In this document: piece after piece, positions 668-19,119 of the stretch
Layout: the number at the start of each line of letters is the position of its first letter
How positions within the stretch are numbered: position 1 is the stretch's first letter
Origin: an uncultured virus (IMG/VR IMGVR_UViG_3300028388_003769)
Lineage: Duplodnaviria > Heunggongvirae > Uroviricota > Caudoviricetes
IMG/VR virus record: IMGVR_UViG_3300028388_003769
Direction: 5' to 3' (one strand)
DNA length: 20,000 nt
The notes under the pieces: generated by a model
The model's input: the letters and a program-made list of their open reading frames with translations, nothing else
What the model was told of the DNA's origin: nothing
The model's database searches: none
Program-made: the position numbers and the translations under genes

Positions 668-2998
668 TTAATGTCCGTCTCTTAAATTAGTTGCTATTTC
701 TGGAGGAGCTTTTAATGTTACTCCTGGCAACTGCGTAGTTGTCTCCATTAAGTGCTGCACAATAGGAGCTGTTTCAGTTAAGTGCTCCTGTAAACACTCT
801 ACTACAAGTTGATCGTGTATTTGTGCTACTACTAATGCATCTAATCCTTGTTGTTTCAATTTACGATTGATCTGTAATGCTGCTCTATTAACTACAGAAG
901 CAGCTAGTGATTGTATTTGAAAATTCAAACAAGAATTTAATGCATTACGGTAATCCCTATAATACTGCATGGTTTGTTTTTTTCCAATAGATTTTTGTAG
1001 TTTAGACCGAAATCTATAATCCATTAACCTATCACCATAAGTGTCGTATGCTGCCTTTCCTCTATCCAGGTGACGTACTCGACCAACTTTATTTACTATC
1101 TTTCCTTTATACTTAAAATAATCTCTCGAACTCTCAATCCAATCTGCAACACCAGGAAAACCCTCAAGATAAGCATCTCTCAACCTCTCTCCTCGCTTTG
1201 GTGAAATACCAAGAGTCATAGCTAATGCATATCCTGACATGCCGTAAGCAATGCCTAGTGAGTAGGGTTTTGCTTTATTTCTTAAAGGAGCATTAATTTT
1301 TTTAAGATAATTATCTGCTTTCTTATCTGCAGAAACTCCTTTTAGTTTTTCAGTTCGAATAGCAACTGTACTGTAAAAGTCATGACCTTTATTGAAGATT
1401 TCTTGTAGGTTTTCATCACCAGTTATGGATGCAAATATATGAGGTTCCAAACTCTCATAATCAGCATCAATAAACTTATAACCATCCCTTGCTATAAAAA
1501 AAGCCCGAATTAAATTATTGTACTCGATAACTAGTGGATCATCTTCCCCTTCCTCTTTAGGTTTTGGTAGTTGCTGTAAGTTACTTCCATATCTTCCAGA
1601 TACTGTTCCGTGTTGTTTGAAGTATGGATAAAATATACCGTTTTCATGCTCTCTTAATAACCTGTCTATATATGTAGATTTAATCTTAACCAGTCTATTA
1701 TGAATTCTTAACTTTCTAGCCCACTCATAGGACTCACTAAGCTTTTCAACAAGATCGTCATCAAACCTAGGACTTCCTTTTTTAGTTTTGGATAGAGGTT
1801 TAATATTCATATACTTAAACGCTACATCTCGTAATTGTGATTTAGATTTTATGTTAATGGTATATCCGTTATTTTTTTCCTTCCACTGTTCTATAGATAC
1901 CATTACTAAATCCAAATCTTTCATTCCATGATCAGAATTAGGATCTAATAAAAACTGTTTCATAGGAGAATCAGGAAGTTTTAACACATTTTTCTTTACT
2001 ATGTGGTAATCTCCACTTTCCTTCTTAGGAATAGGAAGATTATACATCTTTACAAAAAGTTGAGCAAACCTACCCCTATTTGAAGGTGTGCATTCAGATC
2101 CAAATGCAGTATCAACTAGCCAATTTGTAAACGACTCTAACTCTTCTAACGCTTCAACAACCTCATCTTTCAACCGCTTCATATCTTGTATAATCCACTC
2201 ATTAGTGCCTTGTAGTAAGTCCAAATCCACTTTTAAGCCTCTACGTTCCATTGGAACAGTTACTTCCTTATACACAGGCATAACCTCCTCTTCAAAGAAA
2301 AATTTATCCAATCTCTCCTCAGCAATTTTACCAACATATAGTTTAGCAATTCTATAAGTTAAATCTGTATCTGCACATGCATATTCACTAAGTATATCTA
2401 AATCGGCCTTAAAAATCTCAAAATTACTTTTTGTGGTAGATCCACCATTACGCTTTACACTTTCATACAGTTGTACTTGCTCTTCGTTAGCTTGTCTATC
2501 TACATCTAAACCCAACTCTTCTTGACACATTTTAGCAATGGATTTTAATGCAAAAGGCTTTCCATACATAAAAGCACCTTCTTCCTGTACAGTGTGAACT
2601 GCTAAGGTTGTTTCAATCCACAAATCAGGTAACAAATCAATTCCATAATTAGAAAGCACTATTCCTGTATCAAACGAAGCATTGTGCATTACTAGCTTCT
2701 TTCCTTTTAAAAGAGTTAACACTCTAGAAAGAACCGATTCACCAGAAAGCTTTTGATCATTTATGTTAATATAAAAAGGCTGTAATTTTTTAGCATTTGC
2801 ATTATACACGTACGTTGGAATGTAGTATCCTGTTCCCTGTTTGGTAGTAAACGAGGCACCTATAATCTTATCTTTTCTAGGAGACAGTCCTGTAGTTTCT
2901 GTATCAAATGCAACTACTTCACTCTCTACCAACTCCTTTACTAGTCTCCACACTTGTGTTCCATTACAAACTTTTACGTATTGTTTATTGTTCGCCAT
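668..2998 (-). CDS. polA: Family A DNA polymerase with 3'-5' exonuclease domain
   Basis: Exo I DTETTG, Exo II HNASFD, Exo III YACAD; TVSGRYGS..LQQLP; motif A DADYESLEPHIFA; motif B RNKAKPYSLGIAYG; NFQIQS; motif C QIHDQL. Confidence 0.96.
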   Translation of the reverse strand: MANNKQYVKVCNGTQVWRLVKELVESEVVAFDTETTGLSPRKDKIIGASFTTKQGTGYYIPTYVYNANAKKLQPFYININDQKLSGESVLSRVLTLLKGKKLVMHNASFDTGIVLSNYGIDLLPDLWIETTLAVHTVQEEGAFMYGKPFALKSIAKMCQEELGLDVDRQANEEQVQLYESVKRNGGSTTKSNFEIFKADLDILSEYACADTDLTYRIAKLYVGKIAEERLDKFFFEEEVMPVYKEVTVPMERRGLKVDLDLLQGTNEWIIQDMKRLKDEVVEALEELESFTNWLVDTAFGSECTPSNRGRFAQLFVKMYNLPIPKKESGDYHIVKKNVLKLPDSPMKQFLLDPNSDHGMKDLDLVMVSIEQWKEKNNGYTINIKSKSQLRDVAFKYMNIKPLSKTKKGSPRFDDDLVEKLSESYEWARKLRIHNRLVKIKSTYIDRLLREHENGIFYPYFKQHGTVSGRYGSNLQQLPKPKEEGEDDPLVIEYNNLIRAFFIARDGYKFIDADYESLEPHIFASITGDENLQEIFNKGHDFYSTVAIRTEKLKGVSADKKADNYLKKINAPLRNKAKPYSLGIAYGMSGYALAMTLGISPKRGERLRDAYLEGFPGVADWIESSRDYFKYKGKIVNKVGRVRHLDRGKAAYDTYGDRLMDYRFRSKLQKSIGKKQTMQYYRDYRNALNSCLNFQIQSLAASVVNRAALQINRKLKQQGLDALVVAQIHDQLVVECLQEHLTETAPIVQHLMETTTQLPGVTLKAPPEIATNLRDGH

Positions 2999-4308: not shown

Positions 4309-5148
4309 CTACACTCCTGTAGTTTTATCCCAAGCAGATACGTGCAACCTACTAAGACCCACATACCCGTACTTCTTTGCCATTTCTAATGAAAATTTAG
4401 TTCTTTCGTGAAAGTTCTTTTGAGCATCTAATCCTGGCATTAAGATCACTCTTGTTGCAGGTATGTTAAATGGTTTAATAAAATCTGTTTCAATTTCTTG
4501 TAGATCCTCTTCATTAGAAATAACAAACTTGAACCAATAATTTGAATGTTGCATAATACGCTTTAGTGCTCTAGGTACAATTCTTCGATCTTTTTCCATA
4601 CCACTATTAGCTAGTTTAACCGAGCAATTTATCTGATTGATGTGTTTAAACAAATCGTCTTCAATATATCCAGTTCCATTTGTTTCTATTTCGTTATAAA
4701 ACTTTGGAGGATGCTCAGAACCCTGAAAAGAGTGGTGTTCATTACACCAATCAATAAAGCCGACTATAGCGTTAGCATTTGATCTTATAGTAGGCTCTCC
4801 TCCTGTCCATATTAAATGAACTCTACCTTGCATAATCCAATTAAACAGAAGGGGATGCTGCTCCATCCATGATTCATATAGTTGTTGATAGGTTGTTTTT
4901 CCTCCATTTATCCATACGGGTAGAGTGTCGCAAGTCCAAGTTGCTTTACCTTGTTGATGTAAATCTCCCATAAAATCTCCTGGGTCAAACTCTTCGAGAC
5001 CTTGTTTCATACGTCGTAGCATATCCCTCGAAGCACCACAAGACAAGTTACAATTCATTAACCTGATAAAATATGCAGGGTATCCTGTACTTGCTCCTTC
5101 ACACTGAACACTGTAAAAGTGTTCAGATATGTTTAAAGTATTGCTCAT
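4309..5148 (-). CDS. queE: 7-carboxy-7-deazaguanine synthase (radical SAM)
   Basis: EHFYSVQCEG..TG.PAYFIRL..CNLSC...WTCDT, TGGEP, EIETNGT, SVKL.NSG, FKFVI and C-terminal RLH. Lies in a cluster with folE. Confidence 0.92.
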   Translation of the reverse strand: MSNTLNISEHFYSVQCEGASTGYPAYFIRLMNCNLSCGASRDMLRRMKQGLEEFDPGDFMGDLHQQGKATWTCDTLPVWINGGKTTYQQLYESWMEQHPLLFNWIMQGRVHLIWTGGEPTIRSNANAIVGFIDWCNEHHSFQGSEHPPKFYNEIETNGTGYIEDDLFKHINQINCSVKLANSGMEKDRRIVPRALKRIMQHSNYWFKFVISNEEDLQEIETDFIKPFNIPATRVILMPGLDAQKNFHERTKFSLEMAKKYGYVGLSRLHVSAWDKTTGV

Positions 5149-5309
5149 AATTTATTTATTTTTTCATTTAAAATTAGTTGAAGTTTTTCAATTCTTACTT
5201 CTGTGTAGTCCACATCCATAGAGGACATGCAACACATCCTATTCTCATTTGCTATTTCCTGTAACAGATTTAACATAGAAACCACCTCTTCTTCGGTTAG
5301 TTTAATCAT
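5145..5309 (-). CDS. Small hypothetical protein, 54 aa (below ORF-track cutoff)
   Basis: Manual translation MIKLTEEEVVSMLNLLQEIANENRMCCMSSMDVDYTEVRIEKLQLILNEKINKL*. ATGA overlaps with the PRTase stop (5306-5309) and with the queE start (5145-5148). Confidence 0.7.
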   Translation of the reverse strand: MIKLTEEEVVSMLNLLQEIANENRMCCMSSMDVDYTEVRIEKLQLILNEKINKL

Positions 5310-5794
5310 AATAATCTAGATATTGTGTGTTCTCGTTCAAAAGTGCTACCACTTTCCCAAGGAAATACAATCCAGGAATCTGTATACAGTTCAACTCCTA
5401 TATAAGAACATTTAAAACTACTAGAAACTCTTTGCACTAAACAGGCTGTTTGTATTTGCAAACTAGAGGAAGATGTAATGTCCTTAAAAGTGTTACCTGA
5501 ATCGTTAATATCATCAACAAGCAACACATCCGGTCTTATTGCATGTTCGTTAAATGGAACATATTTCAAGCTAGTAGCATGCGATAGAATGGTTGCTAAA
5601 ATTAAACCTCCCCTAGGGATTCCTGCAACGTATTGTAGATGTTTGTAATCTGGACTACTGGAAACTTTGGCAGCAGTTGTTAGTGCTAAACTGTGTACAA
5701 TGTCCCACGACAAGTGTGTAACTTCTTGTCCTGTGCTAGTTACTTTTGTTGTATTTTTTATCATGATGCTTTCCTTTGCCATAATCTCCGTCAT
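5306..5794 (-). CDS. Type I purine phosphoribosyltransferase (Gpt/XGPRT-like); true start may be the ATG at 5764
   Basis: GIPRGGL loop, PRPP-binding motif VLLVDDINDSGNTF and C-terminal WIVFPWE. Confidence 0.88.
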   Translation of the reverse strand: MTEIMAKESIMIKNTTKVTSTGQEVTHLSWDIVHSLALTTAAKVSSSPDYKHLQYVAGIPRGGLILATILSHATSLKYVPFNEHAIRPDVLLVDDINDSGNTFKDITSSSSLQIQTACLVQRVSSSFKCSYIGVELYTDSWIVFPWESGSTFEREHTISRLL

Positions 5795-6236
5795 ACTTGT
5801 GCAGAGTTTCTGCTTTGAATAATAGAAACTGTCCTATTCGAGTTCCTTTTTGTATAGCTGCAGGACCTCCGTTAACATGAAGCACTCCTGCCATAACTCC
5901 ATGATATCCAGAATCATACAATCCAGACGTTAGAAATAAACCATTACGATTTAAGGTTGATCGAGTAATAATAAATCCTGCTTCACCTTCTCCGACAACA
6001 ACTTCTCCTTTCATTATTACTTCGTAACTACCTGGTTTTAACTTATAATACCCTTCAGCATTTGGTTGGACAATCCTGGATCCTCTGTGTATCTTTTTAG
6101 TTTCGTCCAATACAAAAGGTCTTTTCTCTAAAGCAAAAACTAGATCTAAACGTACGTCAATAGCATTTGGTTGAATATCAGACAGATCATATTGTGTTAG
6201 TTGTGAATTTGAATCTTTTGAGTGTATGTGTATCAT
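5736..6236 (-). CDS. Trimeric dUTPase / dCTP deaminase superfamily protein
   Basis: QPNAIDVRL, LKPGSY, RSTLNRNG, GLYDSGYHG, RIGQF and C-terminal YDGDYG. Confidence 0.85.
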   Translation of the reverse strand: MIHIHSKDSNSQLTQYDLSDIQPNAIDVRLDLVFALEKRPFVLDETKKIHRGSRIVQPNAEGYYKLKPGSYEVIMKGEVVVGEGEAGFIITRSTLNRNGLFLTSGLYDSGYHGVMAGVLHVNGGPAAIQKGTRIGQFLLFKAETLHKYDGDYGKGKHHDKKYNKSN

Positions 6237-6242
6237 GTTGTT

Positions 6243-6647
6243 TTATGTGTTTTGTTTAGACTTTTTAAATACTATATCTCTAGAATCAAAAACTCCACCT
6301 GTCCAATCTGCATTTGATTCTGGCAATTTAATTGTTTGATATTCCTTATTATTAGATTCTAAAAAATCCATTCGATGTTTGTCTTCATAATGCATTAGTA
6401 GTATTATATAATGAATTGCTTTAAGTAGGTCTTTTCTGTTTTTTCCTTGCTTTTTACCATATCGCATTAGGTATTTAATAGCGGTCCCTCGACACATAGC
6501 CTGCGATACGTTCATACTATCCCACACGTCCAACACTTGAATTCCTTTTTTATTCTGATTATAGTGTTGATCGTAGGTGTTCTTAATATACTCCAACGCT
6601 TCAGTAAGGTGTTTATCTTCGTTGTATTTAAAATTATTATTTTCCAT
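6243..6647 (-). CDS. DUF3310 family protein (T7 gp1.7-related, possible nucleotide kinase)
   Basis: YDQHY...IQVLD...CRGTAIKYLMRYGKKQGKNRKDLLKAIHY matches the DUF3310 pattern (HY...G.AIKY..R.GKK...DL.KA..Y). Confidence 0.8.
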   Translation of the reverse strand: MENNNFKYNEDKHLTEALEYIKNTYDQHYNQNKKGIQVLDVWDSMNVSQAMCRGTAIKYLMRYGKKQGKNRKDLLKAIHYIILLMHYEDKHRMDFLESNNKEYQTIKLPESNADWTGGVFDSRDIVFKKSKQNT

Positions 6648-7506
6648 ATTTCTGTACTAGATTATCTATATGTTTAATATTATTATAAACTACGCTATCG
6701 TTTAGTGTTCTACTATCATGATCCCATTCAAAGTCTACTTCAACTTCATACTTTCCATGAACTAAACCAGTCGGAGAGTTATCAAACTCAATACCGTTAC
6801 ATCCACACCATATGGCAGCTGAACTGTCCCACGAAGAGAAGTAATGAAGCCAACGTGATAGTAGTTGGATCTCGTTAGGTCCGTCCGTCATTCCAAGCAA
6901 ATGCAACTTAGGTCTATGTTTTGGCAAAAGATCTAACCAGGCTTCAAAGAAACCCCTGTCTTCTAATATACTTAAAAATTTCCACCTTGACAACATTCTT
7001 TGTAATTTATTTCCCTTTTCAACACCAAATGCATTAGGAATAGCTAGTATAGAAAATCCAATATAATCTATTAAGTGGTAATGTGCTAATCCCCAAAAAA
7101 AACATTCAATAAGATCTTCTATATCTCTAATTTTTGATTGCGGTATAAAAAAAGTACCAAATCCAGCTTGATGAATATCAAAAGCAACGTCTGCTGCTGC
7201 TTGTTTTGTGCGATCAGATGGTTCATTGGGATAATCAGACATTGCTATGTAGTCTGCTTGTATACGATGACCCATTTCAATTAACTTTTCTGTAGGGTAC
7301 ATGTCTTTACCTTGCTTGTACATCTCGAAAGCTGAGTTGTCCATGATGTTTATCATGTTGTTGTTTGCACGTTTTTCTTTAACATACCATCGCACATACT
7401 CAGGACTGCTTTCTACTAAATGAGCTAATGTTAGGTGAATCGGTCTGTTTTTTACAAACTGTAAGTACTTTACTGGTGCTATGTGACAAAATGATTTACT
7501 TTCCAT
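6637..7506 (-). CDS. dpdA: Divergent TGT-fold 7-deazaguanine transglycosylase (DpdA family, probably DpdA3-like)
   Basis: TGT/DpdA barrel motifs in the expected order: IMDNSAFE (cf. DSGxF), SDYP, IPQ, YIGFS, HLLG, SWDSS. Adjacent to folE and the dpdL-like gene. Confidence 0.72.
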   Translation of the reverse strand: MESKSFCHIAPVKYLQFVKNRPIHLTLAHLVESSPEYVRWYVKEKRANNNMINIMDNSAFEMYKQGKDMYPTEKLIEMGHRIQADYIAMSDYPNEPSDRTKQAAADVAFDIHQAGFGTFFIPQSKIRDIEDLIECFFWGLAHYHLIDYIGFSILAIPNAFGVEKGNKLQRMLSRWKFLSILEDRGFFEAWLDLLPKHRPKLHLLGMTDGPNEIQLLSRWLHYFSSWDSSAAIWCGCNGIEFDNSPTGLVHGKYEVEVDFEWDHDSRTLNDSVVYNNIKHIDNLVQKYGK

Positions 7507-7523
7507 AATATATTATTTATTTC

Positions 7524-8009
7524 TTACAGTGTGAGTGGTTTATATTCTAATACCGCACCATTTTCTCCATCTTCTGAAACTTCTACAGACATGCTGCGTT
7601 TAGATGAGTAGTTCTGTAAAAGATAATCCAATATCTCCTCAGCTAACATTTCACAAGATTTATAATCTAATTCCAACTTTCCTGGATCGTATAGATTTTC
7701 TAATTCTCTTTTTAGCATTATAAACTCAATGTCACGATTGTTATGCTCAACTTCAATTTTTACTTTAAAGTGAAATATGTGTCTATGTGGATATCTCAAA
7801 AACTTTACCTCTTCAGGAGCATCAGGATATTTGTGAATTCCTTCCTTTTTAAAAGTAATCCATATATATCTCTTCAACTCATAGGTCTTGTAGTAACGAT
7901 GAGAACCTTCATCAATAGATAGTGTGGCAGTCTCGTGTTTTGACTGTTCACTACCTTGCGTACGAGGTTCACGATCTTGTTTATGTTTGTTAATGTTTTT
8001 ATTATTCAC
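7524..8009 (-). CDS. dpdL: QueD-like T-fold protein with LxxxHRHxF motif (DpdL-like putative CDG decarboxylase)
   Basis: LRYPHRHIF at 7773-7799, plus RDIEFI, SCEMLAE and VSEDGENG. T-fold pattern related to QueD but lacking the canonical QueD CxxxHGH. Confidence 0.75.
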   Translation of the reverse strand: MNNKNINKHKQDREPRTQGSEQSKHETATLSIDEGSHRYYKTYELKRYIWITFKKEGIHKYPDAPEEVKFLRYPHRHIFHFKVKIEVEHNNRDIEFIMLKRELENLYDPGKLELDYKSCEMLAEEILDYLLQNYSSKRSMSVEVSEDGENGAVLEYKPLTL

Positions 8010-8685
8010 ACTTTAGATTATTAGCTATTAACGAAAACCATTCATTCTTTACAGACGGATTATAAAACTGACCACTAAGTACAGTGGTTTGTGTAAGTGA
8101 GCAATGAGCATTTACTCCTCTATTTTCCATACAACCGTGAGTACCGTGTATATAAACACCAACATCCTTAGTTCCTGTGTGTTTAATTACAGCATCGCTT
8201 ATCTGTCTTGTAAGCTCTTCTTGCAACGTTCCACGTCTAGCATACCACTGTGCAAGTCTAACATACTTAGACAAGCCTATAACATGAGTTGCTGGGATCA
8301 AGCCTATAAATGCAATACCTTTTACAGGCTGGTGATGGTGTGAGCACATAGAAACTATTTCAGCTCTGATATTTAAAATGCCCGTATATCGGTCTTTGGG
8401 GTTGTCGTTAGGAAATGCTGTAATGTTGGGCGGTTCTGTGTATCTACCAGACATAAGTTCATTGAAATACATCTTAGCCATTCGTCGAGCTGTGTCTTGT
8501 GAGTTTGGATCATTCTTACGATCTATCAAAAGAGTATCCAACACACCTTCAAATTTTTCGGTTAGCTCGTCTATTAACTCAGCTTTTTCCTGTTCACCGA
8601 CAAACTCCCAAATAGTATCACTAGCAAAATAGCGCTTTCCATGAGACTCCATACGGTCTCTTATTACTTTTGAAACTTCTTTCAT
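8002..8685 (-). CDS. folE: GTP cyclohydrolase I
   Basis: TARRMAKMY..EL..G, SMCSHHHQP, IGLSK..R, RR..LQEEL and HGCMENRGV. Confidence 0.96.
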   Translation of the reverse strand: MKEVSKVIRDRMESHGKRYFASDTIWEFVGEQEKAELIDELTEKFEGVLDTLLIDRKNDPNSQDTARRMAKMYFNELMSGRYTEPPNITAFPNDNPKDRYTGILNIRAEIVSMCSHHHQPVKGIAFIGLIPATHVIGLSKYVRLAQWYARRGTLQEELTRQISDAVIKHTGTKDVGVYIHGTHGCMENRGVNAHCSLTQTTVLSGQFYNPSVKNEWFSLIANNLKCE

Positions 8686-8711
8686 TTACTTGTAACTTTA
8701 TTAAAAAATAA

Positions 8712-10361
8712 TTAAGATTCACATGCAACACACTCGAGAAGGTTTCTTCCAACCTGTTGAGCGTTGTTTACTGATCTTTGATAATATAACGTTTTTATTC
8801 CAGATTTCCAAGCAATTAAGTAAAGATTATTTAAATCTTTTAACTCTATGTTATTAGTGTTAATCATAAGATTCAAAGACTGACCCTGATCAATATATTT
8901 TTGGCGAATGCTAGCTTGTCTGATTACAGCCAATTGAGACACTTCTTCAAAAGTTCTAAATACATCTTTCTCTTGCTCTGATAGAAAATCTAAATGTTGC
9001 ACAGAGCCTCCTCTGCGTGAAATGCTCTGCCACACTTCAGGAGTGTCTTTGTTCTTTTTTTGTAACACTTTTTTTAATTCTGGATTTTTGAAAGTCCACT
9101 TTCCTTTTGCAGTGTCTTTTATAAAGTAATTAGATGCAAGAGGTTCTATACTTGGTGAAACTTGACCTAGTATAAAAGAAGAGCTTGTTGTAGGTGCTAT
9201 AGCTAGTCGTGTTGTAAATCTCTCACCATAACCTTTTAGCATTTTAGGCTCACCATACTTATGTGCTAACTCGTGACTGGCTTTAACAGACTTTCTGTGA
9301 ATGAATTGAAATATCTCAGAAGTAATGTAATTAGCTGCTAGATCATCAAATGGAAGACTTTTACTCTGCAAGTAGCTGTGCCATCCTAGGACACCAACTC
9401 CTATACTTCTGTGTTCTTTAGCAAACTTTACAGCTTTTTCCATATATGGAATTTTGGAAGCTTTTTGTATAAAGTCAGTTAAAACACTATCCAAAAAGTA
9501 GTGTAGTGTTTCTACAGCATCGGTTTCTTTAAACTCATCAAAGTGTAGCAAATTCAAACTACTCAAACAACAAGTAAATGACTTTTCCTCATCACTATAC
9601 TCCATAATCTCTGTACACATTTGACTATGCTTGATAGCGATATCTTTATCTTTATAGACTTGAGGCTTGTTATTATTTACATTGTCTTCAAAAAAGATGA
9701 AAGGATACCCAGTCTCACTCCTTCTCTGCAAGATCAGTGCCCATATCCTTCGCTTTTCCTCATCTCCATCTATCATAGACTGCATCCATCCAGGAGGAAT
9801 AGTGACTGCTGTTGAAAGGGTTTTTATAGGATGGCCTTCTGTTCTACATCTTAAAAATTCCTCTATGTCTGCATGATCTATTGGTAGGTATGCTGCAAAG
9901 TGTCCTCGACGAGCTTCTCCTTGAGTAACCACAGAGGTTGTTGCTTGAAAAGCTTCCATAAAATGAACTGGACCTCCACTCTTGCCTTTACCTTTAATTT
10001 GAGATCCTCTAGGTCTTAAATTACCAAAATAGCCTGCTGTTCCTCCTCCATTGGATGTCATCATCCCTATTTCAGAAACAGATCTTAAAATATCAGGTAA
10101 GTGGTCTTGGATCGTAATTCCAAAACATGAAATTCCTAATCCTCTATCTAAACCAAAGTTTAACCAAATAGGAGTGGCTAGAGAGTAGTATCCTCGTGCT
10201 ACGTAGTCTTCAAACTTATCTGCAAATCCTTTTATTTGTAGTATGCTCTCTGCATGTTCTGCTATCTGCCTAATCCGCTGCTGTGGAGTTACGTCTTTTT
10301 GTAAATAGCCTCGTTTTAAAAACGAGATTGATTGTTCATTGAGCCATTGATATTGTGCCAT
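8712..10361 (-). CDS. nrdA: Class I ribonucleotide reductase alpha subunit (no ATP cone)
   Basis: ATP.W.N.G..RG..ISCF, GGGT, QGEARRG..A.YL..DH.DIEEFL, SQMCTEI, CCLSSLNL, AIAPTTSSS, IDQGQSLN, KTLYYQR and C-terminal CVACES. Confidence 0.96.
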   Translation of the reverse strand: MAQYQWLNEQSISFLKRGYLQKDVTPQQRIRQIAEHAESILQIKGFADKFEDYVARGYYSLATPIWLNFGLDRGLGISCFGITIQDHLPDILRSVSEIGMMTSNGGGTAGYFGNLRPRGSQIKGKGKSGGPVHFMEAFQATTSVVTQGEARRGHFAAYLPIDHADIEEFLRCRTEGHPIKTLSTAVTIPPGWMQSMIDGDEEKRRIWALILQRRSETGYPFIFFEDNVNNNKPQVYKDKDIAIKHSQMCTEIMEYSDEEKSFTCCLSSLNLLHFDEFKETDAVETLHYFLDSVLTDFIQKASKIPYMEKAVKFAKEHRSIGVGVLGWHSYLQSKSLPFDDLAANYITSEIFQFIHRKSVKASHELAHKYGEPKMLKGYGERFTTRLAIAPTTSSSFILGQVSPSIEPLASNYFIKDTAKGKWTFKNPELKKVLQKKNKDTPEVWQSISRRGGSVQHLDFLSEQEKDVFRTFEEVSQLAVIRQASIRQKYIDQGQSLNLMINTNNIELKDLNNLYLIAWKSGIKTLYYQRSVNNAQQVGRNLLECVACES

Positions 10362-10384
10362 TGTTGGTTGTGTTTTTGGTTATG

Positions 10385-11362
10385 TTAAAAAAGCTTGTCG
10401 GAGCTGAAAGAGCGCATTTTGCGTTGATACTCTATTGGTTTCTTATAAAAGAAATCTGTTAGTGCTGAAGCGAATACTTCGTCCTCCATCCATTGGGTTT
10501 GTTCTATATAGTGGGGCTCTACTTGAAAAACTTCCTTCAATCCTATACGCACTAAGGACTCATTTAGTCTTCTTTTAACGTATGCTTTTAAAATATCTTG
10601 TGAAACAAACTCATTAGAATAATCTCCAACCATCCATTCAATCAAGTTACACTCAGCCATATACGCTTCTATTGACTCCTCTATAATTCGTTGTTCAAAC
10701 TCCTCATCAAAAATCTCAGGATGCTCTTTACGAATTTGAGTAAGAAGTGCCATACCTCCTTCAGCATGTAAGTTTTCTTCCTTAGAAGTGTACTGTACTA
10801 CGTTAGCCATGTCCTTTAGAATTCCTCTAAATCTATTAAAACCTAATATAATAAAGAACTGGCTAAATAGAGATACGTTTTCAGTAAAAAGAGTAAACAG
10901 TGCTAATGAATAGCATATGTTTTTGCGGTCGTCTTCGTAGTGCTTATTTATATATTTGTTAAGATACCTAACTCGTCCTTTGATAAACTCCTCGCTAAGT
11001 ATGTTTTGAAACTCATCATTAAAGCCTAGTTTATTTAAAATCTCTGAGTAAGCTCTACTGTGAATTACTTCTATACCTCCAAACACAGCTCCCATATCAC
11101 CAATTTCAGGTTTGGGAATTAACTTACCAATGTTAGACCAGTAGCTCTTAACAGCAACTTCGACTTGACTAATCAATAAACTAGCTCGTTTAATCAACTC
11201 TTGTTCTTGCTTACTCAGTTTTGTATTATAGTCTTGAACATCGCTAGAAAAAGTAAACTCATTTACAGTCCAATGACCGGCCCACATAGCTTCTATTAAA
11301 GGTTTTGATATAAAGTCATACTCGAACGGTTTGTAGTTATCTCTTGGTGTAAATATAGACAT
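10385..11362 (-). CDS. nrdB: Class I ribonucleotide reductase beta subunit
   Basis: KPFEY, HW...E, SQVEVAV, EVIHSRAY (radical Tyr retained), FTENVSLFSQF, KEENLH and DFF...P.EY. Confidence 0.95.
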   Translation of the reverse strand: MSIFTPRDNYKPFEYDFISKPLIEAMWAGHWTVNEFTFSSDVQDYNTKLSKQEQELIKRASLLISQVEVAVKSYWSNIGKLIPKPEIGDMGAVFGGIEVIHSRAYSEILNKLGFNDEFQNILSEEFIKGRVRYLNKYINKHYEDDRKNICYSLALFTLFTENVSLFSQFFIILGFNRFRGILKDMANVVQYTSKEENLHAEGGMALLTQIRKEHPEIFDEEFEQRIIEESIEAYMAECNLIEWMVGDYSNEFVSQDILKAYVKRRLNESLVRIGLKEVFQVEPHYIEQTQWMEDEVFASALTDFFYKKPIEYQRKMRSFSSDKLF

Positions 11363-17856: not shown

Positions 17857-19119
17857 TTATAAGTAATTTAAATTAAAAAAATTAGATCCTACCTTAACAT
17901 TAACGTTAGGTAGTATCCTATTAAGCTGTTCAACAATCACAGCTTTTTCCTTTTTGGTAAGATCTAATAAAAACGAATCGTAAGTGTATAACACTAACTT
18001 AGATTGACGATTTCGCAACAAATTTAATACTTTTTGTATAAATATCATTGAAAAATCCGTTTCTATACCTTGAAGATAGTAATTAAATAACTTAGATCTA
18101 TACATATCTCCATATGTTTTTTTATATATTTTTCTCTTGCTAATCGGCAACTGTATATACTCTATCTGTAGATACTCTTGCCATAGTTTGTCTTTAAACT
18201 GTTCAATTGCTTTAAATAGTTTAAAATGTTTAAACTCCGGAAGTGGCTTGGAGTATATCATTTTGAAAGTTATCTGTTTGCTTAAATTGTGTTGTTCTTG
18301 TGTTAATGAATCACAATCAAAGTACATTTTTCCAAAAAAGTCATGCAAGTTCTCTTCAGGAAGTTCTATATCTAATAATCTTCCTAAAAGTCTTATATGA
18401 TAAGAATCAAAATCGTACTCTACTAAAACTCCATCACTTCCCCACCTCGATGTAAAGGCTTTACGACTATCGTCTTGCTTGTTTAAAGCTACAAAATTTA
18501 CTCCACCATACGCATTACTAGGCCTTCCTGTTGAGGTGTATAGATTGTACTCATTAAACAAAAGGTTACCTTTTGTACTCTTACTTGGATATTGTCCGAA
18601 TATTTTGTTAAAGAGCGGTAAATCAACGTGTATGCCGTTAGATTCTATTGTCATAATGTTCTCACTCACAACCTCTTTATAAAACGTCATACAAGGCGTT
18701 ATTTCAAAATTATAGTTATTATTAATAATATTTTGAATAACCTCTCTACACCACTGCTCTATTTTTAAAACTGGAATGTGATACACGTTATTGTTAACGT
18801 GTTGCAACAGTGCGTTAAAGTTCTCGTAGTTGTCTATCTTTAATATGTCCAAATCATTATTTAGCCATAAAAAAGTAGACAAATCGTAACTATCCGCTTC
18901 GTAATATCTATCAAATAGTTTTTTATTATAGACTAAATACGTGTCTTGTTGGATTGTAAATCTGTCAGTTAGCTTTAAGAACTTACTATCAAACATATTA
19001 ATACAAAACCCACAACCTTTATTGCTAACTAGATCGTATTCGTATATATAACCTATATCTCCTAAAGACCAGTGATATGACCAATCTTTTGGAATGCATA
19101 AAACTATTTTCATAATCAA
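17857..19119 (-). CDS. Short, atypical family A DNA polymerase-like protein (likely start ATG at 19113)
   Basis: IESNGIHVD, YNLYTSTGRPSN, RKAF, motif A VEYDFDSYHIRLL, motif B HNLSKQITFKMIYS, NYYLQGIET and motif C LYTYDSFLLD. No recognisable exonuclease catalytic motifs. Confidence 0.85.
   Translation of the reverse strand: MIMKIVLCIPKDWSYHWSLGDIGYIYEYDLVSNKGCGFCINMFDSKFLKLTDRFTIQQDTYLVYNKKLFDRYYEADSYDLSTFLWLNNDLDILKIDNYENFNALLQHVNNNVYHIPVLKIEQWCREVIQNIINNNYNFEITPCMTFYKEVVSENIMTIESNGIHVDLPLFNKIFGQYPSKSTKGNLLFNEYNLYTSTGRPSNAYGGVNFVALNKQDDSRKAFTSRWGSDGVLVEYDFDSYHIRLLGRLLDIELPEENLHDFFGKMYFDCDSLTQEQHNLSKQITFKMIYSKPLPEFKHFKLFKAIEQFKDKLWQEYLQIEYIQLPISKRKIYKKTYGDMYRSKLFNYYLQGIETDFSMIFIQKVLNLLRNRQSKLVLYTYDSFLLDLTKKEKAVIVEQLNRILPNVNVKVGSNFFNLNYL

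Follow-up and report, generated by a model that had tools for sequence, protein, structure and literature searches.

The DNA analyzed here is a 20,000-nucleotide stretch (the window) from an uncultured virus of the Caudoviricetes (IMG/VR record IMGVR_UViG_3300028388_003769). The listing of its open reading frames (ORFs) revealed one minus-strand block of phage replication genes, within which ten genes from nrdB to queE form a run that includes the genes of a DpdA3/DpdL system of guanine replacement by 7-deazaguanine. Investigation of this run and of related phage loci revealed that the gene encoding the DpdA3-family protein is accompanied by genes for a kinase-type protein and a deoxynucleotide hydrolase, an association that points to modification in the nucleotide pool before replication. 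The ORF coordinates confirmed the single strand, the gene order and the tight or overlapping junctions of the run as described in an initial annotation, which had been made without database searches. The genes of the run, and the DNA polymerase gene found elsewhere in the block, are the following:

10385-11362, minus strand: NrdB, ribonucleotide reductase (RNR) small subunit, first gene of the run (PF00268, 2e-48; phrog_86, 2.5e-62)
8712-10361, minus strand: NrdA, RNR large subunit (PF02867, 4.1e-98)
8002-8685, minus strand: FolE, GTP cyclohydrolase I (PF01227, 5.7e-38; phrog_2197, 3.2e-47)
7524-8009, minus strand: DpdL, 161 aa, QueD-like T-fold, GTG start (phrog_17812, 1.5e-32)
6637-7506, minus strand: DpdA3-family barrel of 289 aa with a tRNA-guanine transglycosylase (TGT) fold (homology to listed DpdA3 proteins and predicted fold)
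6243-6647, minus strand: DUF3310-domain protein, putative dNMP kinase (PF11753, 4.8e-10; phrog_236 "nucleotide kinase", 8e-14)
5736-6236, minus strand: gene of the dUTPase/dCTP deaminase (DCD) fold, predicted nucleotide pyrophosphatase (PF22769, 6.5e-14; PF00692, 2.2e-6; NF002598, 6.4e-25, below its cut-off)
5306-5794, minus strand: phosphoribosyltransferase (PRTase), compact 6-oxopurine (Gpt-type) (phrog_8995, 2e-16; NF006613, 5e-11; PF00156, 24.6 bits, below cut-off)
5145-5309, minus strand: 54-aa ORF, ATGA-coupled to both neighbours
4309-5148, minus strand: QueE-like radical-SAM enzyme, synthase of 7-carboxy-7-deazaguanine (CDG) (phrog_2076, 7.4e-42)
668-2998, minus strand: family A DNA polymerase with 3'-5' exonuclease (PF00476, 9.4e-63; PF01612, 2e-11)

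The two ATGA overlaps of 4 nt are those at the PRTase/54-aa ORF and 54-aa ORF/QueE junctions; FolE and DpdL overlap by 8 nt, DpdA3 and the DUF3310 gene by 11 nt, and the DCD-like gene and the PRTase gene by up to 59 nt, while gaps of 6-26 nt separate the remaining genes of the run.

Regarding the 289-aa protein, described as DpdA-like in the initial annotation, homology and a structural model identify it as a DpdA3-family protein with a predicted TGT fold. It has no match in Pfam, PHROG or NCBIfam, aligns over its full length with the DpdA3 of phage phiST (CGPG_00065; 25% identity, E 2e-6), and is 40-45% identical to QIG70629 and QIW86899, both given as DpdA3 in Suppl. DS1 of Cui 2023 (PMC10516641). 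A DpdA3 family profile detected immuto gp206 (2.3e-15) and CP220 gp056 (3.6e-8), and the DpdA proteins of PA5oct, BUCT-ZZ01 and ACP17 were not found with it. A large protein collection contains 1709 relatives of the 289-aa protein. The AlphaFold2 model of DpdA3, built on 25 relatives, has a pLDDT (predicted local distance difference test) of 91.2 and a pTM of 0.89, and the top 50 matches to this model in the Protein Data Bank (PDB), obtained with Foldseek, are without exception ArcTGT or TGT (E 6e-9 to 1e-7, TM 0.49-0.57, probability 1.0 for the best match). Sequence profiles alone fail to reach TGT, the DpdA3-clade profile giving just chance Kelch matches among PDB sequences. D56, D91 and D227 are invariant in the DpdA3 alignment, in which no Cys is invariant, and a short hhalign match of non-significant probability (0.12) pairs D56 and D91 with D89 and D143 of the E. 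coli TGT, two residues that are presumed here to have roles in TGT catalysis. The length of DpdA3 is 258-289 aa in the phages examined. TGT carries a Zn site built on a Cys cluster. A complex prediction for DpdA3 and the DUF3310 protein scored 0.00 and gave no verdict, and it weighs neither way on binding.

The 161-aa gene, called dpdL-like in the initial annotation, is by homology and motif a dpdL, encoding a putative CDG decarboxylase. In addition to its match to phrog_17812, the protein is 41% identical to CGPG_00067 of phiST (2e-14, tblastn) and has no match to PF01242, and its residues 71-79, LRYPHRHIF, match the signature LxxxHRHxF, which in place of CxxxHGH separates DpdL from QueD (Cui 2023, PMC10516641). 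The motif was detected in 77 of the 82 DpdL ORFs of the IMG/VR loci described below, and of the five ORFs without it four are cut at contig ends. The decarboxylation of CDG by DpdL is a published proposal; in the same study expression of DpdL in E. coli yielded no dDG, and a docking argument in the supplement holds that DpdL accommodates the base alone (Cui 2023, PMC10516641).

For CDG synthesis, which had been ascribed to FolE, QueD and QueE, the window contains genes for FolE and QueE, while no window ORF matches QueD (PF01242), even at E values up to 10, and no QueC was found in the window. Among the related loci with at least 7 kb of upstream sequence, QueD was detected in all 22, FolE in 21 and QueE in 21. 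The QueE-like protein matches the QueE models of NCBIfam at 1.5e-13 to 3e-5, all well under their cut-offs. Its Pfam Radical_SAM match has an E value of just 0.094, the Cys residues expected for the radical-SAM cluster are C33, C37 and C73, and an insert of about 35 residues lies ahead of the WTCDT stretch.

The gene neighbourhood of DpdA3 was compared in a profile scan of IMG/VR that returned 411 DpdA3 relatives, the best 80 of which, together with two more, gave 82 loci with 72 distinct DpdA3 sequences. The core genes are co-stranded in all 82. Wherever 300 nt or more of downstream sequence is available (79 loci), DUF3310 lies directly 3' of DpdA3, and wherever 1500 nt or more is (68 loci), a DCD-like gene lies downstream of the kinase slot (the position held here by DUF3310). 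DpdL is found 5' of DpdA3 in 63 of the 64 loci that extend 1500 nt or more upstream. The initial annotation had proposed the co-occurrence of the PRTase, DUF3310 and the dUTPase-fold gene with dpdA3/dpdL as a check; it holds for the latter two genes but not for the PRTase, which was detected in 14 of the 22 loci that extend 7 kb or more upstream and, by PF00156 and tblastn, in none of the four nearest isolates with complete genomes, namely Vibrio phages D479 and Bakedbeans, Aeromonas phage Ahp1 and Rhizobium phage RHph_I1_18.

The DUF3310 protein of the window scores 39.8 bits with PF11753 (cut-off 24). It aligns with residues 111-193 alone of the 196 of T7 gp1.7 (33% identity, E 3e-5), and because the likeness is limited to this part, the sequence identifies it as a DUF3310-domain protein and not as an orthologue of gp1.7. 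A kinase function is suggested for it because DNMK and P-loop kinases fill the same slot in other phages. DNMK, together with a DCD-like gene, replaces DUF3310 in D479, Bakedbeans and Ahp1, and the two families are mutually exclusive in the complete genomes, since DUF3310 is absent from the entire genomes of these three phages and DNMK from that of RHph_I1_18. In RHph_I1_18, DpdA3 and DUF3310 form one protein of 422 aa, followed by the DCD-like gene. The DpdA3::DUF3310 fusion was found in RHph_I1_18 and in ten or more other protein clusters (11 or more in all), and a quick tree of 70 hand-chosen rows (11 fused and 59 unfused) gives four changes in the history of the fusion, at least two of them forced by well-supported branches. 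DpdL and the AAA_18 protein are likewise encoded in a single open frame in both of the phiST-type loci examined (L210:3082-3996 and L211:1489-2457). Because such DpdL::kinase fusions exist, DpdL may act on a nucleotide, although the docking in print says otherwise. The DpdL of Chryseobacterium phage MA9V-3 (L105:3647-4528) is the C-terminal part of a 293-aa protein, the N-terminal half of which has no assigned family.

Regarding the hydrolase slot, the dUTPase/DCD-fold protein of the window scores 52.7 bits with PF22769 (cut-off 27) and 27.9 bits with PF00692 (cut-off 22). In the alignment to the DCD of M. tuberculosis (2qxx), the window protein has AGV where 2qxx has TLE, the Glu of which we take to be the catalytic Glu of the deaminase, and this replacement argues against deaminase activity. 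A role of the DCD-like gene as a dCTP deaminase was considered and, for want of this Glu, rejected. A second, better-scoring dUTPase is encoded elsewhere in two of the four complete relatives, D479 and Ahp1, while RHph_I1_18 and Bakedbeans have the module copy alone. Outside the module, Ahp1 encodes a canonical dUTPase (85 bits) as well as a canonical DNMK (168 bits). Since Ahp1 carries both enzymes elsewhere and D479 the dUTPase, the module copies there are extra, diverged paralogues.

Further DpdA3 phages have other families in one or both slots. The gene order in phiST is MazG, DpdL, AAA_18 protein, DpdA3, and that in MA9V-3 is DCD-like, DpdL, AAA_18, DpdA3, while in Campylobacter phage CP220 the genes HD::AAA_33, DpdA3 and AAA_28 make up a three-gene island (L103:4543-7036). 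The CP220 island sits between the tail-sheath and tail-tube genes and is remote from the PRTase and QueE genes of this phage. Twelve immuto-type loci spanning 65-87% identity, of 80 fetched, were inspected for neighbours within three ORFs; AAA_28 was present in all 12 and a PRA-PH (MazG-like) hydrolase in 11, and the twelfth has a canonical dUTPase in the PRA-PH slot (PF00692 1.4e-22, L152:3383-3823).

Neither kind of enzyme was detected near DpdA genes of other types. Annotation and Pfam placed neither a kinase-type gene nor an NTP pyrophosphatase at a distance of up to about three genes from the DpdA1 gene of 9g or the DpdA2 genes of VH7D, Moby and ACP17, and likewise neither enzyme is encoded beside DpdA in seven DpdA1 loci of IMG/VR and in KVP40; several of these controls are closely related, and one locus (L124) was dropped when its dpdA was not recovered. 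Judging by these neighbourhoods, DpdA3-type genes appear always to be tied to a kinase-type gene and a (d)NTP hydrolase, with the families of both swapped between lineages.

The reading preferred here, with a probability of roughly 0.55, is that the core of the DpdA3/DpdL system works on free deoxynucleotides before replication, the base being exchanged on dGMP and the product then phosphorylated and incorporated by the polymerase. The routing of the base via the nucleotide pool, as put forward in the initial annotation, is retained in so far as hydrolase and kinase-type genes are tied to DpdA3 and not to DpdA1 or DpdA2, but the ribonucleotide route through the PRTase and RNR that it had included is not retained as a core path. 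From the gene content we infer the substrates and reactions of the scheme that follows, as well as its order of decarboxylation and exchange. FolE would carry out the first step from GTP towards 7-deazaguanine and, together with QueE and with a QueD supplied by the host or by a gene outside the window, would provide CDG, which DpdL would convert to 7-deazaguanine. The dUTPase/DCD-fold enzyme would hydrolyze dGTP to dGMP, both draining the dGTP pool and supplying the substrate of DpdA3, and DpdA3 would replace the guanine of dGMP with the 7-deazapurine by TGT-type transglycosylation. The modified dGMP would be phosphorylated by the DUF3310 protein, the nucleoside diphosphate kinase of the host would yield the triphosphate, and incorporation of 7-deaza-dGTP by the phage family A polymerase would result in near-complete replacement of G. 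7-deaza-dGTP is a good polymerase substrate. The PRTase would have an accessory part, either converting the released guanine to GMP and GTP or joining the deazapurine to phosphoribosyl pyrophosphate (PRPP).

The central element of this scheme, that DpdA3 is a free-deoxynucleotide base exchanger and not a DNA transglycosylase, with a pyrophosphatase specific for dGTP acting before it and a dedicated dNMP kinase after it, is taken to have even odds. As far as gene content can tell, a dNTP hydrolase, a dNMP-level modifier and a dNMP kinase would be encoded together, and exchange of the base of dGMP by DpdA3 suits the conserved core better than a ribonucleotide route. It is the phages with DpdA3 that are fully substituted, attempts to obtain a working DpdA3 in E. 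coli failed, and the ADG nucleoside was observed within the cytoplasm of CP220-infected cells (Cui 2023, PMC10516641).

A number of points weigh against this reading. The closest folds of the DpdA3 model in the Foldseek search are those of nucleic-acid transglycosylases, and the mapping of D56 and D91 onto catalytic residues is suggestive at best because of the low hhalign probability. The DUF3310 protein covers just the C-terminal 83 residues of gp1.7, with an hhalign probability of 38%, and the stand-alone DUF3310 domain is a putative kinase by analogy. To our knowledge, no TGT-family enzyme acts on a free nucleotide, and the known dUTPase/DCD-fold enzymes serve pyrimidine nucleotides; one specific for dGTP would be without known precedent. 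The window encodes no QueD, and the neighbours of DpdA3 in Bacillus phage BSP7 comprise a faint P-loop match alone, with no recognised hydrolase. Because the 82 loci are mutual relatives, their synteny is partly inherited; the ORF caller begins some genes too early, which inflates overlap counts, and the immuto- and phiST-type loci are a hand-chosen 14 of the 84 fetched. The pre-replicative proposal draws on gene context, and Cui et al. 2023 (PMC10516641) concluded that the modification is post-replicative.

That published model, in which DpdA3 is a post-replicative DNA transglycosylase and the kinase-type and hydrolase genes provide an NTP-using helper or pool management, is considered rather unlikely, although it is in keeping with the TGT/ArcTGT fold of the DpdA3 model as well as with the conclusion of Cui 2023. 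The P-loop neighbours are possibly helpers and not kinases, because bacterial DpdA requires the ATPase DpdB (PMC10164549), and the AAA_18, AAA_28 and AAA_33 neighbours are named by generic Pfam families alone. DpdB is, however, ParB-like and not of a small-molecule kinase type (PMC10164549), and the same slot is also taken by DUF3310 and by DNMK, the family of T4 gp1-like dNMP kinases, neither of which is a DNA motor. A helper role leaves unexplained why dNTP hydrolases of three folds accompany DpdA3. Both enzymes are missing from 11 of 11 DpdA1/DpdA2 neighbourhoods, and the phages concerned are partly substituted according to the literature. Furthermore, DpdA3 is short, at 258-289 aa, and lacks a conserved group of Cys residues comparable to the Zn site of TGT.

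A route in which the PRTase joins 7-deazaguanine or CDG to PRPP, followed by a kinase, the phage RNR and the polymerase, with DpdA3 polishing residual G, is improbable as the main pathway. The PRTase of the window is likely a member of the PRTase superfamily, with the compact archaeal and Gpt-type 6-oxopurine PRTases as its closest relatives; it scores 24.6 bits with PF00156 (cut-off 26.3) and 42 bits with NF006613 (cut-off 138), and its C-terminal half, including VLLVDDINDSGNT, which we take to be the PRPP motif, aligns to PDB 1vdm (3e-8). Its 29 tblastn matches are all from Campylobacter, Cellulophaga, Flavobacterium, Brevundimonas and Synechococcus phages and two faecal records; among them are the phiST, immuto and CP220 groups, which are fully substituted. 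The PRTase gene is also near RNR in the window and in phiST, adjoining a DNMK-like gene in the latter, and PRTases link preQ0 or CDG to PRPP in the toyocamycin and tubercidin clusters (bioRxiv 10.64898/2026.04.15.718813). However, a PRTase as a core step, as proposed in the initial annotation, is not supported, given its absence from the four complete relatives and its patchy presence in the IMG/VR loci, and within three ORFs of DpdA3 it was detected in just 6 of the 12 immuto-type loci. The same holds for the phage RNR, a relative of NrdA lying within the fetched DNA of a single one of the 82 loci, and RNR was rejected as a part of the module. The clusters of PA5oct and BUCT-ZZ01 have a PRTase beside a DpdA outside the DpdA3 profile, with no kinase or NTP pyrophosphatase among the scanned neighbours, and a ribonucleotide route would leave the universally conserved DpdA3 without a necessary role. 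Since PRTase and RNR are not core genes, the ribonucleotide route is at most accessory, and the PRTase appears from its distribution to be a frequent accessory and not the obligatory base-to-sugar joining step. Salvage of released guanine is its most likely role, since salvage fits this distribution; by analogy with the tubercidin and toyocamycin clusters, it may instead activate the deazapurine with PRPP.

That the kinase-type and dUTPase-fold genes are bystanders, serving ordinary nucleotide metabolism in a shared early operon with no role in modification, is very improbable. In its favour, dUTPases and dNMP kinases are common in phages, the window is a replication and nucleotide-metabolism module, and the related loci share ancestry. 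Against it, DpdA3 and DpdL both occur fused with a kinase-type domain, phages of unrelated backbone carry different families in one and the same position, Ahp1 has canonical copies of both enzymes elsewhere, the CP220 trio is an island among tail genes, and neither enzyme is found beside DpdA1 or DpdA2.

The gene cluster belongs to the known DpdA3/DpdL kind. With the dDG system of phiST, which consists of FolE, QueD, QueE, DpdL and DpdA3 (Cui, Hutinet et al., NAR 2023, PMC10516641), the window shares FolE, QueE, a DpdL with LxxxHRHxF and a DpdA3-family barrel, with no QueC. In that paper the kinase-like CGPG_00066 of phiST was set aside on the ground that other 7-deazaguanine phages have no homologues, CGPG_00068 was recorded as a dUTPase or MazG, and the words "kinase" and "phosphoribosyl" have no occurrence in the main text (PMC10516641). 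phiST also has a PRTase, like the window, but differs in having QueD, AAA_18 in the kinase slot where the window has DUF3310, and MazG where the window has a dUTPase/DCD-fold hydrolase, and the DpdA3 proteins of the two share just the 25% identity given above.

The hydroxymethylcytosine pathway of T4 comprises the dCTPase gp56, the dCMP hydroxymethylase gp42 and the dNMP kinase gp1. The system proposed here would resemble it in that the canonical dNTP is withdrawn by a dNTP hydrolase that also provides the dNMP, the base is modified on the dNMP and a dNMP kinase of the phage follows, the resemblance being one of gene content alone in the present case, and the relatives of the window that have DNMK in the kinase slot use the gp1 family, as T4 does. 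It would differ in that a putative TGT-fold transglycosylase swaps the whole base, and does so on a purine. Complete pre-replicative purine replacement with a hydrolase that excludes the canonical dNTP is likewise a feature of the Z-genome triad PurZ, MazZ and DatZ of cyanophage S-2L (PMC8342488), and hydrolases of the MazG and HD types are found beside DpdA3 in phiST, immuto and CP220; the chemistry and the enzymes are different, and the present pathway lacks a PurZ-like synthetase.

In the bacterial Dpd system, DpdA and DpdB, a TGT-family enzyme inserts 7-deazaguanine and needs a nucleotide-using partner gene, as proposed here, but bacterial DpdA acts on DNA, at low frequency, and requires a ParB-like ATPase (PMC10164549). 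The partners in the present system are instead kinase-class or DUF3310 proteins and a dNTP hydrolase, and DpdA3 is without the conserved Cys cluster. In the toyocamycin and tubercidin clusters, a PF00156 enzyme encoded beside FolE, QueD and QueE makes a 7-deazapurine nucleotide from the free base (bioRxiv 10.64898/2026.04.15.718813), which provides a precedent for the PRTase step considered above. Those clusters make secondary metabolites and have no DpdA, while the window PRTase is Gpt-type and dispensable in relatives.

New here are the tie of a hydrolase and a kinase-type gene to DpdA3 and the pre-replicative reading of it; no published proposal of a nucleotide-level DpdA3 route was found in the literature searched, which did not cover bioRxiv supplements. 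On the question of how some phages replace every guanine with 7-deazaguanine, the tie points to a route through the nucleotide pool and names three enzymes. If the pre-replicative reading is true, DpdA3 would be the first enzyme of the TGT superfamily to swap the base of a free deoxynucleotide (dGMP + 7-deazapurine to 7-deaza-dGMP + guanine), with three folds having contributed the hydrolase and several families the kinase. The polymerase would then draw on a modified dNTP pool to make the fully substituted genomes (dDG, dADG, fdPreQ1). The view in print, by which every modification of this kind is post-replicative, would be overturned, and the route would provide a third purine example of pre-replicative genome rewriting as well as an enzymatic source of 7-deaza-dNTP.

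Outside the DpdA3 profile, DpdL was found beside a larger DpdA, together with glycosyltransferases, in PA5oct (L099), BUCT-ZZ01 (L100) and ACP17 (L098), two of which have a PRTase, and these clusters may produce a sugar-decorated deazaguanine. The PA5oct protein is tabulated under DpdA3 in Cui 2023 (PMC10516641). Vibrio phage D479 (L001) has the DpdA3/DpdL module, whereas Vibrio phages of similar size and source (D484, D486 and others) match DpdA2, which hints at an exchange of modification cassettes.

Regarding the remainder of the window, family profiles revealed genes for a PD-(D/E)XK nuclease, a DnaB-like helicase, a 5'-3' exonuclease, a UvsX/RecA-like recombinase and a gp32-like single-stranded DNA-binding protein elsewhere in the block. 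In addition to the family A polymerase at 668-2998, a 420-aa ORF at 17857-19119 has a weak match to a family A polymerase palm (E 1.2e-5, below cut-off). The 54-aa ORF has no match in Pfam, PHROG or NCBIfam and no relative among the fetched loci. In a DNA-level search of the cluster against phage records, similarity was confined to RNR (63-65% identity). The contig of the window is itself absent from IMG/VR, where the only relatives found are 51% identical, and an exact 40-mer taken at the left end of the window had no match among metagenome contigs. The leaders of all ten starts in 4309-11362 are A/T-rich and have no Shine-Dalgarno-like purine run upstream. Assuming that absent Shine-Dalgarno sequences together with low GC content mark a host of Bacteroidota type, these starts and the GC content of 35% suggest such a host for the virus.

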